From the IMG/VR virus record IMGVR_UViG_3300033485_000007, positions 12,653 to 76,652 of that record: DNA of 64,000 nt, one strand, 5' to 3'. The notes below the pieces were generated by a model that was given only the letters and a program-made list of their open reading frames with translations, searched no databases and was not told the origin of the DNA. Both the position numbers and the translations under genes were made by a program. Origin of the DNA: a virus (Duplodnaviria > Caudoviricetes). Below, in pieces: positions 2,964-49,028 of the stretch; the stretch's first letter is position 1, and the number at the start of each line of letters is the position of its first letter.

Positions 2964-3689
2964 ATGGCTGACAGGCTCGGAAATCTAGCTCTACCAGTCG
3001 AGATAACCGAGCCCGCTGGCGACCCGTTAAGGGAGACGCTTGGCTCGTATCTACAGGCCGCAATACGTTATTACTGCGCCGATGCGTGGGCGGCAATTGG
3101 CGGTCGAGATAACGACCCATGCGCACGAGTTGAGACTAACGACCCGAACGACAACACGTTCCACACGAGCTCGCTTCCTTGTCTTTGCTTATACCGCGAC
3201 GACCGTAACCGCAAGGTGGTCTATCTCGGTAACGATACGTCGTATCGCGAGGCTAACATCGTTCTGCTCTGGATACCACCCACGGCCGTCCAGGAGCACA
3301 AGGCGCGTCGCGAGTCGTTCTTCAACGCGGTTGAGGGCGCCATCGTTCTCGGCCTCTCACGCGGTAGAGTTCCGACGTGGATTGCCGCTGGTGACACGGA
3401 CCCGGTTTCACAATATCGCGGCTCGCATATCGGTAACCAGCTCGGTCTGATGAAGCCAGTGCATCACGGTGACATCCGTTTCGACGACTTCACGCTCACT
3501 ATCGAAATGCTCGGCGCTCCACCGCGCAAGTACCCTGCACTTCGTGGGATGCTGACGATTCACGAGCAGCTTATCCTTGACCCGTCACTCGGTAACGTAA
3601 CGGCCGCAATTGGCCCGCTTACCGTTGGCGGCTCCACGCTTAGCGTAAATGGCGTCCCATGGTCCACCCTAATCGACCCGATACCATAA
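2964..3689 (+). CDS. neck/tail-terminator-like protein
   Basis: 241-aa ORF abutting the adaptor; assignment by position. Confidence 0.45.
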   Translation: MADRLGNLALPVEITEPAGDPLRETLGSYLQAAIRYYCADAWAAIGGRDNDPCARVETNDPNDNTFHTSSLPCLCLYRDDRNRKVVYLGNDTSYREANIVLLWIPPTAVQEHKARRESFFNAVEGAIVLGLSRGRVPTWIAAGDTDPVSQYRGSHIGNQLGLMKPVHHGDIRFDDFTLTIEMLGAPPRKYPALRGMLTIHEQLILDPSLGNVTAAIGPLTVGGSTLSVNGVPWSTLIDPIP

Positions 3690-3898
3690 TGACCAAGCGC
3701 AAAACCAACATCAAGTACGAGCGACCGTATCCGCCGCGACGCCACGAAGATTCGAACTTTCGCGGCCTCCATCTCGACGACGAGAACCAAGCGACGGTAT
3801 CGACCGTGCTCGGTATCGACCGCGCGCGCAAAATCGGCACCTCGGACGTCCTGTGTCTGATGGCGCGAGTTCATACGGCTCACAATGCTCTGGGTTGA
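3689..3898 (+). CDS. small hypothetical protein
   Basis: ATG overlaps the TAA of the previous gene (TAATG). Confidence 0.45.
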   Translation: MTKRKTNIKYERPYPPRRHEDSNFRGLHLDDENQATVSTVLGIDRARKIGTSDVLCLMARVHTAHNALG

Positions 3899-4001
3899 GT
3901 TCGATAAGTTCGCCTGGACAGGACTAAGCAGCGGGACGCCAGCTTTGGTACTGCTGTTCCTATGCGCCGGGTTCTGGTTGACCGTATTTATTTTCCGATG
4001 A
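3885..4001 (+). CDS. 38-aa hydrophobic peptide (not in ORF track)
   Basis: MLWVEFDKFAWTGLSSGTPALVLLFLCAGFWLTVFIFR; fills the gap before 4003; one TM-like stretch. Confidence 0.35.
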   Translation: MLWVEFDKFAWTGLSSGTPALVLLFLCAGFWLTVFIFR

Positions 4002-4002
4002 C

Positions 4003-4554
4003 ATGATCGACTTTAAAATCGACACAACCGAGTTGCACCGGAAGATAACCGCGTCGCTGCCAGCAATCGAGCGGGACATGATGCGAGCGGTCAATTCCGC
4101 GTCCAAGACGTATGTCGACAAGGCGAAACAGGGCGAGTTCAAAGACCAGACTGGCCAGCTTCGGAATAGCATTAGCTACGTGATGATCGGTTGGCAAAAC
4201 CGAGGCTATTACAACAAGGTGATGGCCGCGACGCCGTACGCGCTGTTTGTTGAGGAGCCTACGAAGCCGCATTGGATTTACCCCAAGGCTGGGTACAACG
4301 CTCCCGTGTCGTCACTCATGCCTGGCCAGACTAGGCGAGGTCGAGGCCCCGGGCCGCATATGCACACGGTCGGCGGAGGTCACGCCTTGCGGTGGAAAGA
4401 CGCTGGCGGCAACGAGCACTTCGCTTCACGAGTTTACCACCCCGGCACCGCTGGGTTTCACTACATGCAACGCGCCGGGGAATGGGCGCGAATCAAACTC
4501 ATACAAGAATTGCACGGTAATTTCGTTACCTTGCGCTCAGTTTGGACTCAATAA
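4003..4554 (+). CDS. virion morphogenesis protein (Mu gpG / HK97 gp10-like)
   Basis: DQTGQLRNSI, TPYALFVEEPT, VYHPGT motifs typical of gp10-like neck proteins. Confidence 0.65.
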   Translation: MIDFKIDTTELHRKITASLPAIERDMMRAVNSASKTYVDKAKQGEFKDQTGQLRNSISYVMIGWQNRGYYNKVMAATPYALFVEEPTKPHWIYPKAGYNAPVSSLMPGQTRRGRGPGPHMHTVGGGHALRWKDAGGNEHFASRVYHPGTAGFHYMQRAGEWARIKLIQELHGNFVTLRSVWTQ

Positions 4555-31339: not shown

Positions 31340-32674
31340 CTATCGTCCATTAGCCAGAATAGACAACAAGACATATCGATCGTTCAGAGATTGGTCATCA
31401 GTAACAAGCTCGAGTAATTCTCGAAGCTTTATGCCAACAGCTGGTCCAGGTCCTATCTCAAGTGTGGACATGACATCCAGACCGGTGACAGCCAACTGAG
31501 TTGTTGTCGTCACAATTGGTGTATAGGCGCCCATTGATGCGATTCGTTCTGTTAGCCAGTCTAGGTAACCATTTGGCAGCCCAGGCGCACGCGATACGCC
31601 CTTCCCGACACAATCCGCCCTGGCTAACGAGATGATGTCCGAAACATTGTCGAGTCCGACCTTTCGAGCCCATCTACGAATTGAGGCAGGTGACTTGAGC
31701 TCGGGCACCAGATGGTAGCGCACCAAATGCACAATACGTTCTCGGTCTTCATTCGAGAATTTGAGTCTTCGTAGTATCGCGTCCGCTACATCGGCCCCGG
31801 TCTTTTCGTGATCATAAAATGTTGGCTCTCCTGTGACCGGATGCGTTCCCTTCGTATCGGGCTTAGCGACATCGTGAAGCATTGCCGCGAGTCGCAAGTG
31901 CTGCTCTTTAGGAGTTGCATCCGTTACGCGCATGGTATGATCCCAAACATCAAACTCGTGATACTTGTTCTGTTCACATCCGATCATTGGCAGCATCTCT
32001 GGCAATACTTGCGCGAGCATGTCCGATCCCAGAAGGATGCCAAGGAAACGAGACGGGAGTGGGGAAAGCAATCCCTTAACAAGTTCCACCCGTACGCGTT
32101 CAGCGGCAACGCTTAATCGGCAACGCTCAATTGCCTCAAAAGTTTTTGAGCCGATACTAAACCCGAGTACCGCTGCAAATCTGACAGCTCGTAAGGCCCG
32201 CAATGTATCTTCGTTCAGCCTGGAATCTGCGTCGCCGACCGCATGTACAACTTTGCGCGCAATGTCATCGACTCCGCCAAACGGATCAACAACCTCACCG
32301 CTCAAAGGGTCGTGGGCAATTGCATTGATTGTGAAGTCGCGACGACTTAGGTCAATCTTGATGCTATCTGAAAACTGTACGCTATCCGGTCGGCGTCCGT
32401 CGGAATAGTGGCCATCAACGCGGTAGGTTGTCACCTCGAAGCTTTCTCCGTCAAGGATGACCGTAACCGTGCCGTGATCTATCCCAGTATCAACGACTCT
32501 GGCGAACAGGTTAGCTACCTGCACTGGTAGAGCGTTCGTCGCTATATCCCAATCGTTCGGGGCGCGTCCGATAATAGAATCACGGATAGCGCCACCGACT
32601 AGGTACGCTTCGAATCCAGCGTTGTTTAGCACGCGGCAGATTGATATCGCGTTTTCTGTCGGGTGGATGTTCAC
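31340..32674 (-). CDS. cca: CCA tRNA nucleotidyltransferase with HD domain
   Basis: YLVGGAIRD, DWDIAT, RRDFTINA, EDTLRALRAVRF, HEFDVWDHT, LHDVAKP. Confidence 0.9.
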   Translation of the reverse strand: MNIHPTENAISICRVLNNAGFEAYLVGGAIRDSIIGRAPNDWDIATNALPVQVANLFARVVDTGIDHGTVTVILDGESFEVTTYRVDGHYSDGRRPDSVQFSDSIKIDLSRRDFTINAIAHDPLSGEVVDPFGGVDDIARKVVHAVGDADSRLNEDTLRALRAVRFAAVLGFSIGSKTFEAIERCRLSVAAERVRVELVKGLLSPLPSRFLGILLGSDMLAQVLPEMLPMIGCEQNKYHEFDVWDHTMRVTDATPKEQHLRLAAMLHDVAKPDTKGTHPVTGEPTFYDHEKTGADVADAILRRLKFSNEDRERIVHLVRYHLVPELKSPASIRRWARKVGLDNVSDIISLARADCVGKGVSRAPGLPNGYLDWLTERIASMGAYTPIVTTTTQLAVTGLDVMSTLEIGPGPAVGIKLRELLELVTDDQSLNDRYVLLSILANGR

Positions 32675-33765
32675 GATATGGCCTCCGACATGATCTCAAC
32701 GCAATCTCTGTCGATTGCTTCGATGTCTGGTGACTTTGGCAGGGCGCTTGTCTTCGCTGCTTCCTCGAGTTTCGAATCTTCCGCAGATGCCCAGTCACGA
32801 AGCTGTTCATACGTCCAAGCTCCGCCGCGTATTGCCAGTAGCTCATCAGCGTCTGGACGCTTAACGATTACCTTACCGGTCTCGAGAATCTCACGACACA
32901 TACGGATTAGACGCACCAAATGCATCGCGTGCTTCGTGTCGTACCCGTGTTTTGCCTCTAGCTCGGCACGAGCAGGATTGCGGGTTGCTTTCCACGTTTG
33001 GTAATTGTTCCATTCGCGAAGTTTACCCGAGTAGCGCCTCTCCATATCGAGTAGATAAATGAAGTTATCGGAAAAACCAAGCGTTCGTGCTGCGCCTTGC
33101 CAGAGCTCGGAGTTGCTTGAAATCTCTAGTTCTGCTAGATGTGAGGACATTTTCTGAAGGATAGACTCACGAATGTCCCTCGGTAGGTCGTCGAGGAAGT
33201 TGGCGCTCCATGAATCCATCTTCTGGCGGATTGCTGACTCTGCCGCGGCAAGCTGATCGTGTGGGACGAGTGATCGCTCTGGTAATCCAAATTCAGTTCT
33301 GGACGGTTGTGCCAACGGTGGTGTTTTTATCCACCTGTAATGTGTGTCGATTCTCTTCAATTGAGAAGCCGCATAACCCGAAAACGTGTGCTTCACTCGA
33401 CGAGTCAAGAACATTTGTCGCATAGCCAATAGCCGTTCGCCGTATTTGGAAACTTGTAGCCTATCCGATTCGTCAACAAACAGAATCTCGATAACGTTTG
33501 GGTTGCACTGTGACGCCAGGCTGACGAACTTCTTTAGGCAGAACACAGTCAAATCGGGCGCGTTGCATACCACCTGATCGAACCGATGCAGGCCACCTAG
33601 GTAGTATTCCCGAGGTGCAATCGCTACCCCGCGAACGTCATGGTCACTAGAAGGCAGAGCGGTGCCGTACGCGTGGCTTCCGTGGGTGCACAGGAAAATT
33701 GTTCGTTCTGGAATCCACTTCAGATTTCCAGAGTATTGTGACCAGTCAAATGTGTTTTGTTGCAT
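32671..33765 (-). CDS. RlaP-family (Pol-beta superfamily) nucleotidyltransferase
   Basis: GSHAYGTALPSSDHDVRGV, CNPNVIEILF, KHAMHLVRL. Confidence 0.85.
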   Translation of the reverse strand: MQQNTFDWSQYSGNLKWIPERTIFLCTHGSHAYGTALPSSDHDVRGVAIAPREYYLGGLHRFDQVVCNAPDLTVFCLKKFVSLASQCNPNVIEILFVDESDRLQVSKYGERLLAMRQMFLTRRVKHTFSGYAASQLKRIDTHYRWIKTPPLAQPSRTEFGLPERSLVPHDQLAAAESAIRQKMDSWSANFLDDLPRDIRESILQKMSSHLAELEISSNSELWQGAARTLGFSDNFIYLLDMERRYSGKLREWNNYQTWKATRNPARAELEAKHGYDTKHAMHLVRLIRMCREILETGKVIVKRPDADELLAIRGGAWTYEQLRDWASAEDSKLEEAAKTSALPKSPDIEAIDRDCVEIMSEAIS

Positions 33766-45795: not shown

Positions 45796-46442
45796 CCGGG
45801 TTGTTTTAGCGCGGCGGTCAATTGGGCGCGCTCGTCGGTAGTCCATGAGAACTTTGAGAGCGTCGACGCTGGATATGTAGCGCGTCCTTCATCGTTAAGT
45901 TTCCCAATGGCTTCCAGATGATCAGCGAGATTCCCGGCCGGTCTCTCGATTGCCGCCTGAGCCTGGCTCGTTTGCTTGGGCTGTTTAGTGTCTGCGGTCT
46001 TAACGAGTCTACGCTCTTTCGGCTTCCGCTTCGGCAATTTGATGGTAACGGACATGTCGCCGTCAATGTCTGGCGAACCGAGAACGCGAACCGCGTCGCA
46101 CATCGCTCCCTTTGCGCCGCCCGGGTCTCGGTCGCGCTCGATGCACCAGGACACGCGCTTTCCAATCCATGCCTTCAGGACCTTGCCGAACATAGCCTTG
46201 AGGCAATCCCCGTTGGTCTTGTTGAGTTTGAACTGCATCGGCGTCTCGACAAATGTCAGGATACCGGCGGGCTTATCAACTCCGTCGTCATCTGGAAGCG
46301 CTTCTAGGTCGTAATCCTTGATCGTTAGCGTTGGCTTATCAGTGCCAAACAACGGCACGAATAGTCCAGATTTCAAGAATCGACCTGGGAACATTTCGTC
46401 CCAACACGTCGGTTTCGGTAGCATTTTTCGTTCAATCGCCAT
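45792..46442 (-). CDS. putative ssDNA-binding/recombination-associated protein
   Basis: WDEMFPGRFLK, LNKTN..CLKAMFG...WIGKRV pattern; adjacent to an exonuclease. Confidence 0.5.
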   Translation of the reverse strand: MAIERKMLPKPTCWDEMFPGRFLKSGLFVPLFGTDKPTLTIKDYDLEALPDDDGVDKPAGILTFVETPMQFKLNKTNGDCLKAMFGKVLKAWIGKRVSWCIERDRDPGGAKGAMCDAVRVLGSPDIDGDMSVTIKLPKRKPKERRLVKTADTKQPKQTSQAQAAIERPAGNLADHLEAIGKLNDEGRATYPASTLSKFSWTTDERAQLTAALKQPG

Positions 46443-47370
46443 CGGTATTGTCCTTTGAGAAGTCCAGCTCCTCGTCTAATCCGTCTTCTGAATCGTGTCT
46501 AGCGAACTTGGGGATTTGGTACTTTAGTCGAACCTCGTTTGCCATTCCGGGGAAATCGTTATGAGCAATCGCGACCTTCAACTTCATCAGCCATTCCTGG
46601 TAATTGATCCGCCCCTCCTGAAGGTCCTCCTCGTCGAGCTCAAAAACGATCGAATCGTGGATGTCACAAGACTCAACGGCGAGCACCAGCGTTTCCGGGT
46701 CGTCTTCGATATCGAATAGCGTGCGAAGTGCGTCGGCGTACCATGCCATCCTGGAGTGGTACTGGAGCTTGGCAGCCTCGTGAAAGAATTTACCTGGTGA
46801 GATATCGCGAGCCGTTTTCAGGTCGCCGAATGACGGACGCCATCCGTCAGGAAGTTTGTCACCTGGCTTGACACGCTTCCCGTTGAGTCTACGAAGCCAG
46901 TCTATACGGCCCTTGCATAGGATGCCTGTTTCTCGGTCGACCCAAACGAGTACCACTTCCGTTTCGACGTCGCTGATTGCCTCGCGTGACCGTGGCTCCG
47001 CGTGAATCTCGTGCCGAATAGCGACCGCTTTGTTGTAGTCGTCGAGCTGGACGATTGTTTTACCAGGATTCGCCGCAACAAACGCGTTCCAATCGTCCCC
47101 GCGACGCGGCGACATCTTTGTCTTGCCGTCCTCGTCTGGCTTTGAGCGCTTGGTCCAGGGCACAAACTCGCGCGCGAACCGGTCTGGCTCGAGAACCGCG
47201 GCGTGTCCAGTCGTTCCGAGCGCGAGCGCCTTAGTGGCTCGCTTTGGGCACCGCTTATAGTGTTTTAGCGACTTGTTGATAAACGACAGTCTCGACACGT
47301 TCACCGCGTCGATTTGCTCGTACGCGTCAGGCGCTATCTCGTCTCTGTAGTACAGACCGATTCCAATCAT
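46432..47370 (-). CDS. exonuclease VIII/RecE-like PD-(D/E)XK nuclease (DUF3799-like)
   Basis: LGTTGHAAVLEP, CKGRIDW, DLKT, YHSRMAWY. Confidence 0.85.
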   Translation of the reverse strand: MIGIGLYYRDEIAPDAYEQIDAVNVSRLSFINKSLKHYKRCPKRATKALALGTTGHAAVLEPDRFAREFVPWTKRSKPDEDGKTKMSPRRGDDWNAFVAANPGKTIVQLDDYNKAVAIRHEIHAEPRSREAISDVETEVVLVWVDRETGILCKGRIDWLRRLNGKRVKPGDKLPDGWRPSFGDLKTARDISPGKFFHEAAKLQYHSRMAWYADALRTLFDIEDDPETLVLAVESCDIHDSIVFELDEEDLQEGRINYQEWLMKLKVAIAHNDFPGMANEVRLKYQIPKFARHDSEDGLDEELDFSKDNTDGD

Positions 47371-47371
47371 G

Positions 47372-47527
47372 CTACAATCTCCTTAAATCGTCACTTCCGC
47401 AACTAGGACACGTCACCTGATAGCACTCACAGCGCGCCGTGTCGAGTTCAGCAAACTCGGCAAAGCACGTCTGACATTCGAGCGTTAGATCATCCTCTGG
47501 CGGGTCGTAGTCGCCAGCGCCACGCAT
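47372..47527 (-). CDS. 51-aa zinc-ribbon protein (not in ORF track)
   Basis: ECQTCFAEF...VTCPSCGSDDLRRL, two CxxC pairs. Confidence 0.6.
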   Translation of the reverse strand: MRGAGDYDPPEDDLTLECQTCFAEFAELDTARCECYQVTCPSCGSDDLRRL

Positions 47528-47528
47528 T

Positions 47529-47729
47529 CTATCGGTGCGCACTGCCGACCGCCTCCTGAGCGTCTAGGGCGAGCTTCCCGATGGCTTGGGCGCGCGGTAT
47601 GTCGCCGCTATCGAGAGCCAGCAGAGCCGCCGTGGCGAGTCCGCGAGCAATGCACTCGGCCTGGAAAAGATCTGTGTGAATCAGGGCAAGCATTTGTTCG
47701 TATGCTATTTGGGCTTGGGATGGAGTCAT
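47529..47729 (-). CDS. small hypothetical protein
   Basis: 66 aa with AGAGG RBS. Confidence 0.55.
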   Translation of the reverse strand: MTPSQAQIAYEQMLALIHTDLFQAECIARGLATAALLALDSGDIPRAQAIGKLALDAQEAVGSAHR

Positions 47730-47759
47730 AATCCTCTACTCAGGAATCGTCTTTTGTTT

Positions 47760-48233
47760 GTGCCCAGTCACGGAGTCTAACCGTGTCAGTACGTCTGGGC
47801 TGGACCGGGCTTATCGCGCCCTTGCGTTACCGCTCTGACGCCAATCGTGGCCCCGGTACACGGCGGATGCGCCTCACGATTGGTTGTCTTAGTGTTACTG
47901 GCATAGCATTTGGTCCGTTTGGTTTTGGTCTGCTACCGGCGGGCGCAACCCGCGCGCAATACCCAGCGTTACTCGATGCTGGTCATAAATCCTCTAGTGG
48001 TTCTTCCGGGCCATACCGCAGTCATCTCAGTCATCGCAATCCGTTGCCGATTGGACACCCGCCGGCACAATTGCCACGTGGTTGGCTTCGATTAATTTGG
48101 TTGGTATGTCAATGTTGGCGCAACCCTAAGGCATGGTTCCTCGCTTTCGTCTGGCAGCCTGTCACATTACAGGGCCCGGGAGAATGAACAATCAGCGTGG
48201 CCGATTACTCACTCTATCGGGCTCTGTATGGGC
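47760..48233 (-). ncRNA. candidate about 470-nt structured RNA
   Basis: Downstream of a promoter, no sense ORF longer than about 35 codons, at least ten helices found by eye including a 9-bp perfect stem and GNRA loops. Confidence 0.5.
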
Positions 48234-48237
48234 AATT

Positions 48238-48265
48238 ACTATAGCGCAATCATGGCGGACGTCAA
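48238..48265 (-). promoter_or_regulatory. sigma70-type promoter
   Basis: TTGACG-16-TATAGT. Confidence 0.65.
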
Positions 48266-48883
48266 CCTAAACTTGCTACGTCAACCTCTGATCCAATATC
48301 GAAGTCAGCCGATTCTTGTGTGACATCTCCGTCTGAGTCGCAAATAATATTCGTCATTACCTCGATCGTACAATCGTACGTAGCGAAAATTCTGCAACCA
48401 GGGTATCTACCAATAAGCTCGGCTAGGTCACGTTTGAATTCGAGTTCGACCTGTTCCCTGGTTTTCATTTTGCCTCCGTAATCACACACTCGTCGATTCC
48501 CTCGCGAATTGAGAAGATATCGTACCCGAGTCGGGTCATCCTCAGAAATACCTGAGCCGGCGTCAACAGCGTCTCCACTGGTCGCGTTGGCCGAACTCGT
48601 CGATAGGTGGACACGTCGCCAAGCATCCTATCGAACGACACCACGCGATTCACGCGAGCACCACGCAAGCCTGAGCGAACACGTCCCGCGCGCTTGCACC
48701 AGACACGACAACGCGCTCGGTAGTGTCGTCGGTCTCTCGGTCGTACTCGGTTACGCGGATGTGTTTGCGACCGTTCTCGCCGGCCGAGAACGTGATCGTT
48801 TGACCTGGCCGTAGCGAGTCCAGGATCGCGAAGATTTGTTCGGCTTGCTGCGCCTTGAGTTCCGATAGTTGCTTGGTCAACAT
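48262..48883 (-). CDS. three small genes (48262-48489, 48465-48668, 48650-48883)
   Basis: Downstream of the promoter at 48.9 kb. Confidence 0.55.
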
Positions 48884-48889
48884 CTGTGT

Positions 48890-48936
48890 CTCCTTGCTGA
48901 TAGATACAGCGTGAAGCATTTCGCGTCGCGGCGCAA
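48890..48936 (-). promoter_or_regulatory. early promoter family member P48
   Basis: TTGCGC-17-CACGCT then TCAGCAAGGAGA, like TCAGCAGGGAGA in P26. Confidence 0.55.
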
Positions 48937-49028
48937 GGAGATTTTAACTGGTGCGCGGATATAATCTCAACCTGTCGTATTTATTGGACTATCAGCGCTC
49001 CATTCTCAATTCGCGAATCCGGAACGCG

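Follow-up and report, generated by a model that had tools for sequence, protein, structure and literature searches.

A possible tRNA-island-derived leader ending in a tRNA-like minihelix upstream of phage recombination genes

The locus and its neighboring genes

The window analyzed here is a 64-kb stretch of DNA, bases 12653-76652 of a 76.6-kb IMG/VR record rated 55% complete. It belongs to a phage with a contractile tail, in which major head, sheath, tape-measure, and baseplate genes were found, and which also encodes a tRNA nucleotidyltransferase (31340-32674), a second nucleotidyltransferase, a clamp-like protein, and NAMPT. Within 31340-33765 on the minus strand, the CCA-adding tRNA nucleotidyltransferase (phrog_2244) overlaps the second nucleotidyltransferase (phrog_388). 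The whole record holds a single tRNA gene, a tRNA-Ser(GCT) that lies outside the window. Because this is the only canonical tRNA in the record, host tRNAs or tRNA-like RNAs may be among the substrates of the CCA-adding enzyme.

On the minus strand, a gap of ≈530 nt (47730-48261) lies between the stop codon of a 68-75-aa ORF (48262) and the start of a 66-aa ORF (47729), which is followed by a Zn-ribbon ORF and a DUF3799 exonuclease gene (Table 1). The gap adjoins the recombination and replication genes of the phage, with the exonuclease, SSB, and clamp genes following shortly downstream. Relatives of the 66-aa ORF were searched for, and none was found. Every minus-strand frame of the gap is interrupted by 9-10 stops, open stretches do not exceed 51 codons, and gene callers leave the same ≈530-nt gap empty in near-identical contigs. 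An earlier note on this DNA had remarked on an ORF-poor stretch here; a noncoding minus-strand gap is indeed present, and it is a genuine gene-free one that is probably transcribed. Its sense strand is A-rich and T-poor, the antisense strand correspondingly A-poor; neither an AT-rich segment nor a GC-skew turn was seen in the region, and there is no terminator-like site in 47000-49000.

Table 1 Features of the gene-free gap and of the genes downstream, in minus-strand order
Feature	Position	Strand	Remarks
Sigma-70-type promoter, TTGACG-16-TATAGT	48238-48265	-	Predicted start ≈48231-48233
Extended 66-nt hairpin	48165-48230	-	At the predicted transcript 5' end; ≈26 pairs, including 4 G-U
Stretch in the position of the L003 tRNA-Arg	48122-48164	-	Possible tRNA relic
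Conserved noncoding body	47801-48126	-	Corresponds to L003:3861-4131; blastn and exact-word matches collinear
Shared block GCGCCAACA	48121-48113	-	Exact in L003
Shared block AACCAAAT	48102-48095	-	Exact in L003
Shine-Dalgarno (SD) word, ATG, and 5-codon ORF (MTSIE)	47969-47996	-	Inside the leader
Shared hairpin GCGGGTTGCGCCCGC	47953-47939	-	Collinear block in L003
Shared block ACGGACCAA	47918-47910	-	Exact in L003
Shared 21-mer CGCGATAAGCCCGGTCCAGCC	47818-47798	-	21/21 identical in L003; last 3 nt enter the minihelix
tRNA-like minihelix, 40 nt	47761-47800	-	Lacks D and anticodon arms; ends 31 nt ahead of the start codon
66-aa ORF	47529-47729	-	First gene downstream of the leader
Zn-ribbon ORF	47372-47542	-	After the 66-aa ORF
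DUF3799 exonuclease	46432-47370	-	After the Zn-ribbon ORF

The same slot in related phages

To place the gap in context, we turned to the DUF3799 exonuclease, which has 20 relatives in metagenomes; on four contigs, the DNA extends upstream of the gene. In the contig L003, whose exonuclease is 59% identical to that of the window, the same place is taken by a gene-free gap of 621 nt that contains a tRNA-Arg(CCT). The corresponding gap of L010 measures 460 nt and contains a tRNA-Trp and a tRNA-Ile(TAT), and L006 carries one tRNA in the slot; all of these tRNAs are on the strand of the exonuclease gene. Because the gaps of L003, L010, and L006 hold tRNAs, the slot is, as read from these contigs, a promoter-driven tRNA island in this phage group, oriented in the same direction as the recombination genes. 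L010 (484-520) and L006 (196-232) also have a common leader after the tRNA, TGCTGACACATGGG...TGTTCAT.GG, which is unrelated to the leader of the window and is a second, different conserved noncoding element in the same slot.

Outside these contigs, the searches returned little. More distant exonuclease contigs show no such gap near the exonuclease gene, L049 covering only ≈700 nt upstream. Among INPHARED phages, blastn with the region found nothing, and tblastn with the exonuclease found only relatives of at most 31% identity. The best INPHARED match, MW202476.1, seemed to have a 783-nt gap (3200-3983), which we discarded as an annotation omission, back-to-back ORFs of 133, 62, and 67 aa filling it. 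Exonuclease relatives were absent from IMG/VR and from the species genomes, by protein or by alignment, and the JGI metagenomes gave one short contig that does not reach the region. Conserved words (a 20-mer and a 16-mer in IMG/VR, an 18-mer in the species genomes) produced chance or coding matches only, two gapped patterns found nothing in IMG/VR, and four conserved words disclosed no further family member in IMG/VR and 185,579 species genomes.

Promoter and 5' hairpin

The promoter proposed in the earlier note is upheld. TTGACG-16-TATAGT matches 10 of 12 promoter positions and is among three promoter-like sites in 2 kb, and the extended word GGTTGACG-N-TAWRNT occurs once in the 64-kb window. 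The site has the -35 and -10 hexamers of a sigma-70 promoter at a spacing of 16 nt, within the 16-18 nt usual for this type, and it is kept in relatives: the tRNA gap of L010 opens with GGTTGACG-16-TATGAT (TTGACG-16-TATGAT), and G(G/A)TTGACG heads the tRNA gaps of both L010 and L003, the latter retaining the -35 element with a weak -10. In the window, AGGTTGACGT is present in two copies on the minus strand, 19 nt apart (48287-48278 and 48268-48259); one copy is the -35 region and the other lies within the end of the upstream ORF (48259-48287). The duplication may represent tandem promoters or an operator pair. L003 has at 3600-3669 an imperfect inverted repeat with 28-nt arms, 79% complementary, that overlaps its gap-head TTGACG and has no counterpart in the window.

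The 66-nt hairpin at the predicted 5' end is exceptionally stable, with an MFE of -35.9 kcal/mol and z = -8.0 on the minus strand, a value that 0 of 200 shuffles reach. On the plus strand, z is -4.9; the sense strand scores more strongly because four of the pairs are G-U. An analogous hairpin in L003 (3744-3788), 6 nt 5' of the tRNA, has z = -4.3. The two have the closing GCCCG/CGGGC pairs in common and differ in their interiors, and sequence homology to L003 upstream of 48126, the part that holds the hairpin, is not significant.

A noncoding body conserved with L003

A homolog, which the earlier note had called for as a check, was found in part: ≈385 nt of the noncoding stretch are kept in L003, where 3861-4225 is collinear with window positions 48126-47740 and runs from the last bases of the tRNA to the next start codon. 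When the two are aligned locally, the score of the first half stands at z = 6.3 relative to shuffles; that of the second half, in which the minihelix lies, stands at z = 12.6. Besides the blocks in Table 1, an exact shared word, GCGCCCGC, lies within the hairpin GCGGGTKGCGCCCGC. The 3' half of the 21-mer can pair with the conserved ACGGACC (GGACC/GGTCC), and both strands of this pairing are invariant between the two phages. Larger differences consist of a 90-nt insertion in the window, inside which lies the 9-bp hairpin listed in the earlier note (47883-47841), and a 38-nt middle arm of L003 that is absent from the window. The small ORFs flanking the gap are unrelated between the two phages. 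Because the body and the 3' element are shared while the flanking ORFs are unrelated, the noncoding part is what was kept, and the 21-mer and the other shared blocks appear to mark a small functional element.

Several weaker features lie in or beside the body. The start region of the five-codon ORF, TAGAGGATT-T-ATGAC, is nearly the same as that of the 66-aa gene (47725-47738, minus strand); TAGAGGATT(T)ATG has only two copies in the record, one in the leader (47984-47996) and the other at the start of the 66-aa ORF, both on the minus strand. At the aligned position, L003 has AGAGGCATTATG and then an unrelated 11-codon ORF. The stretch at 48122-48164 may be a relic of the tRNA-Arg found in that position in L003: the alignment covers 15 nt with 12 identities, a score equaled by 47 of 500 shuffles, and neither ARAGORN nor Rfam calls a tRNA there. 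Weak internal repeats are present in both phages: GGGTTGCGCC has two copies in the window, GGGTGGCGCC has two in L003, each with a genome-specific variant, and (G)GGTGGCGCC occurs two to three times in L003. Paralogous similarity among the repeats is weak (z = 2.4); they could be old duplications of tRNA-like units, products of gene conversion, or sites for a co-evolving protein.

A tRNA-like minihelix at the 3' end

The leader sequence ends in a segment that resembles the acceptor/T-arm half of a tRNA. Its acceptor stem, GCCCAG/CTGGGC, is joined by a 9-nt linker to a T arm, CACGG-TTAGACT-CCGTG, and a bulged A and a discriminator A complete the layout, which is also the MFE fold of the isolated segment. 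The neighboring 3' bases are CAA, not CCA. The earlier note had listed GCCCAG/CTGGGC and CACGG/CCGTG as ordinary helices; both stems exist, but jointly they form this minihelix. L003 has a related element at 4132-4210, with an acceptor stem GCCACC/GGTGGC, a long middle arm, a T arm CCTGG-TGCGACT-CCAGG, a discriminator G, and an encoded CCA, which neither ARAGORN nor Rfam calls a tRNA. In this single comparison of two sequences, 5 of the 11 pairs are changed on both sides and none is broken. A MAFFT alignment of the two minihelices mis-registers the acceptor strand and was not used for counting pairs. The comparison supports a putative conserved tRNA mimic at the end of the leader.

The minihelix has an acceptor stacked on a T arm and a 7-nt loop, the structural marks of a t-element, and like the loop of L003 its T-loop has U at position 1 and A at position 5. 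Its z taken alone is -1.1, with 6 + 5 pairs and a T-loop that has no C in the usual position 3. An acceptor-plus-T-arm descriptor applied to the 76.6-kb record has the minihelix as its sole match on the minus strand, against 0.27 matches per genome in shuffles. On the other strand, the descriptor finds the true tRNA-Ser and one site that is probably a chance match (4165-4210, AATAGC...TCGGT-TGGCAAA-ACCGA-G-GCTATT, inside ORF 4003-4554). The tRNA-Ser locus of the same phage shows no similarity to the region.

The earlier note had seen no match to GOLLD, ROOL, tmRNA, RNase P, SRP, or intron cores, and our searches likewise return no known RNA. In the window, ARAGORN finds 0 tRNA and 0 tmRNA genes and Rfam has no match at gathering score; in 47400-48600, cmscan gives none at E ≤ 10. 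The Rfam models for GOLLD, ROOL, and other large RNAs are likewise without a match, in the window at gathering score and in 47400-48600 at E ≤ 10. The same tools do detect the tRNAs of L003, L006, and L010. We considered a canonical tRNA (RF00005) and rejected it, the element having no D arm, anticodon arm, or anticodon and being negative with ARAGORN and cmscan. We also rejected a tmRNA, for which ARAGORN and Rfam give no match; moreover, the acceptor stem backed by compensatory changes is local, not end-to-end. Pairing of the two ends, TGCCCA with TGGGCA, had been suggested in the earlier note; it appears in the MFE fold but competes with the local GCCCAG/CTGGGC, and it is the local stem that the relative supports. 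The minihelix and the 5' hairpin are the only well-supported parts of the leader, and the minihelix is its best-supported structural feature.

A possible leader derived from a tRNA island

We tentatively favor an interpretation in which the gap is the leader of the recombination operon and arose from a tRNA island, and the minihelix is a cut site for tRNA-processing enzymes; we regard this as plausible, if short of probable. The operon would comprise the 66-aa ORF, the Zn-ribbon ORF, the DUF3799 exonuclease, and later genes, preceded by a transcribed leader of ≈500 nt. The promoter at 48265-48238 would start the RNA, whose first 66 nt would fold into the very stable hairpin that, we infer, protects the 5' end. 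The next 330 nt would act as a spacer, partly conserved and loosely folded, and the leader would terminate in the 40-nt element that copies the acceptor/T-arm half of a tRNA. Cleavage by host RNase P would fall on the 5' side of the minihelix (A47801|G47800), and cleavage by a 3' tRNA-processing nuclease just behind the discriminator A47761, which would part the leader from the mRNA. The freed minihelix, with no encoded CCA, would be a substrate for the CCA-adding enzyme of the phage. Transcription, all of the cleavages, and any role of the 21-mer are steps that we infer from the arrangement of the locus.

Several observations argue for this leader: the gap is noncoding and has a promoter, no terminator stands between it and the genes, the relatives have tRNAs in the slot, the noncoding part is what the window and L003 have kept, the 5' hairpin is highly stable, the minihelix differs from that of L003 by compensatory pairs, the phage has its own CCA-adding enzyme, and t-elements set a precedent for cleavage. 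Against it, processing leaves the identity of the 21-mer, between phages whose exonucleases are only 59% identical, and the other blocks unaccounted for. The compensatory pairs come from a single comparison, the fold of the minihelix alone is thermodynamically ordinary, the tRNA relic is non-significant, and the -10 of L003 is weak. The fallback offered in the earlier note, a giant regulatory leader of the recombination genes, comes nearer to the evidence than the single large RNA that it put first.

Alternative explanations

An unlikely, though not negligible, alternative is that the gap is a decaying tRNA island without present function, the minihelix and the shared blocks being leftovers. 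The slot holds intact tRNAs in the relatives and none in the window, the window version of the L003 tRNA-like element has lost the middle arm, and the weak repeats GGGTTGCGCC and GGGTGGCGCC suggest old tandem duplications. Neutral DNA, however, should be saturated at 59% protein identity, yet the 21-mer and several 8-9-mers are identical and collinear. Both minihelix stems are perfect, with differences that are compensatory rather than random, and the paralogous similarity is weak.

The earlier note had proposed a single helix-dense RNA of 470 nt. In the form of a discrete, trans-acting, structured ncRNA of ≈385-470 nt, a stable species with a tRNA-like 3' end, this explanation appears to us quite doubtful. 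It would account for the conserved blocks, including 21 of 21 nt at 59% exonuclease identity between phages whose neighboring ORFs are unrelated, and for the A-rich, T-poor sense strand; the tRNA-like ends mean that RNase P could release a defined RNA. Precedents can be cited in GOLLD, which is often near tRNAs and in prophages (PMC5737381), and in T4 RNAC and RNAD, whose function is unknown (PMC9697503). The folding statistics point the other way. Although the helices that the earlier note listed by eye do exist, close to where it had placed them, the 17 perfect local stems of at least 5 bp compare with 14.6 ± 3.7 in dinucleotide shuffles, 83 of 300 of which equal or exceed that count, and a 9-bp stem is present in 16 of the 300. 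For the MFE of the whole region, z is -1.67 when the minus strand is folded and -0.88 for the plus strand, sliding windows of 150 nt have z > 0 over 48200-47850, and the ≈350 nt in the middle are no more stably folded than shuffled sequence. A two-sequence alifold consensus of the window and L003, based on an anchored alignment, scores z = -1.5, a value equaled or bettered by 18 of 200 column shuffles.

By the general standard for a structured ncRNA, a fold beyond shuffles and/or molecule-wide covariation, the region has just two noteworthy parts, the 5' hairpin and the 3' minihelix. The description as helix-dense is thus not confirmed, with the hairpin at 48230-48165 as the exception, and the single 470-nt RNA is not supported: both whole-molecule tests are at chance, a 90-nt insertion and a 38-nt deletion separate its sole two members, and the slot of the relatives carries ordinary tRNA genes. 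The lack of an Rfam match, even at E = 10, and of any further member in IMG/VR or the 185,579 species genomes also weighs against it. The lesson is that helix density seen by eye in a gap of 57% GC is not evidence for a large structured RNA.

We give little credence to a further variant, in which RNase P and the phage CCA-adding enzyme mature the body and minihelix into a stable, anticodon-less tRNA mimic, alone or joined to the body. Such a mimic would serve, with the RNA-repair genes of the phage, as a decoy or sponge against host defenses that attack tRNA acceptor ends, and the 21-mer would be the site of a partner protein.

There is similarly only a slim chance that the gap works at the DNA level, holding sites for a phage regulator or replication initiator, with words that co-evolve with the binding protein. 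Such an element would fit the genome-specific repeat variants (GGGTTGCGCC twice in the window, (G)GGTGGCGCC in L003), the duplication of AGGTTGACGT at the promoter, the 21-mer, for which there is no structural explanation, and the position shortly before the exonuclease, SSB, and clamp genes. The repeats are few, however, and 175-200 nt apart, the words occur nowhere else in the record, and the AT-rich segment and GC-skew turn are missing. In addition, its G-U pairs make the 5' hairpin strand-specific, and the same-orientation tRNAs of the relatives indicate a unit that acts at the RNA level.

A protein gene on the opposite strand (plus-strand ORF 47783-48187, 134 aa), which the earlier note had singled out for checking, is extremely improbable: its frame is open for 151 codons, L003 also has a long antisense frame (116 codons), and a tblastn comparison restricted to the 1.1-kb L003 gap stretch returns a match of 27% identity across 113 aa (E = 0.001), but this match passes through a stop, and we reject the ORF because the two frames read the 21-mer differently (the L003 frame that reads it as GWTGLIA is open for 75 codons only, leaving the equivalent frame closed, and the long L003 frame reads AGPGLSR), because it has no Pfam match, no relative in 5.8 billion proteins, and was never called by gene callers, and because an A-poor strand by itself removes stop codons.

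Comparison with known systems

Set beside the large phage RNAs, the region resembles GOLLD and ROOL in its size and its association with a phage, and GOLLD often adjoins tRNA genes. Unlike those RNAs, which have many covarying multistem junctions, it has no Rfam match or significant global fold. T4 RNAC and RNAD (species 1 and 2 RNAs) sit in the T4 tRNA cluster, and the leader resembles them as a phage noncoding RNA alongside tRNAs. They are, however, ≈120-140 nt long and were detected experimentally. The ompA leader carries a 5'-terminal stabilizing stem-loop of a bacterial mRNA, and in the window a strong hairpin likewise follows the predicted transcript start almost at once. Unlike that of ompA, the window hairpin is much longer; with 26 pairs, it could equally be an RNase III site.

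The closest parallels to the minihelix are tRNAs and their derivatives. It shares with canonical phage tRNA genes (RF00005) the slot and orientation that these occupy in the relatives and the acceptor/T-arm geometry, and the L003 version ends in an encoded G-CCA. Unlike them, it cannot decode, because it has no D arm, anticodon arm, or anticodon, and ARAGORN and the Rfam tRNA model do not recognize it.

In plant mitochondria, tRNAs and t-elements define mRNA ends (PMC1920247), and RNase P and RNase Z are documented to cut mRNAs at the tRNA-like t-elements (Forner et al. 2007, PMC1920247). Like them, the minihelix is a non-decoding, tRNA-like structure with acceptor and T arms that would lie in a polycistronic transcript beside an mRNA 5' end; true tRNAs have the same role at other sites of that mitochondrial genome. 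Unlike the minihelix, t-elements keep a recognizable T arm of the form GGTTCRANYCC, and experiments have mapped where they are cleaved (PMC1920247). The minihelix has the T-loop TTAGACT, is only 40 nt long, comes from a phage, and has predicted cleavage sites. To our knowledge, stripped-down tRNA copies that serve as transcript punctuation are well documented in organelles only. If the minihelix is a processing signal, it would be a phage case of such copies punctuating multi-gene transcripts, and it would illustrate how processing can become all that is left of a phage tRNA island.
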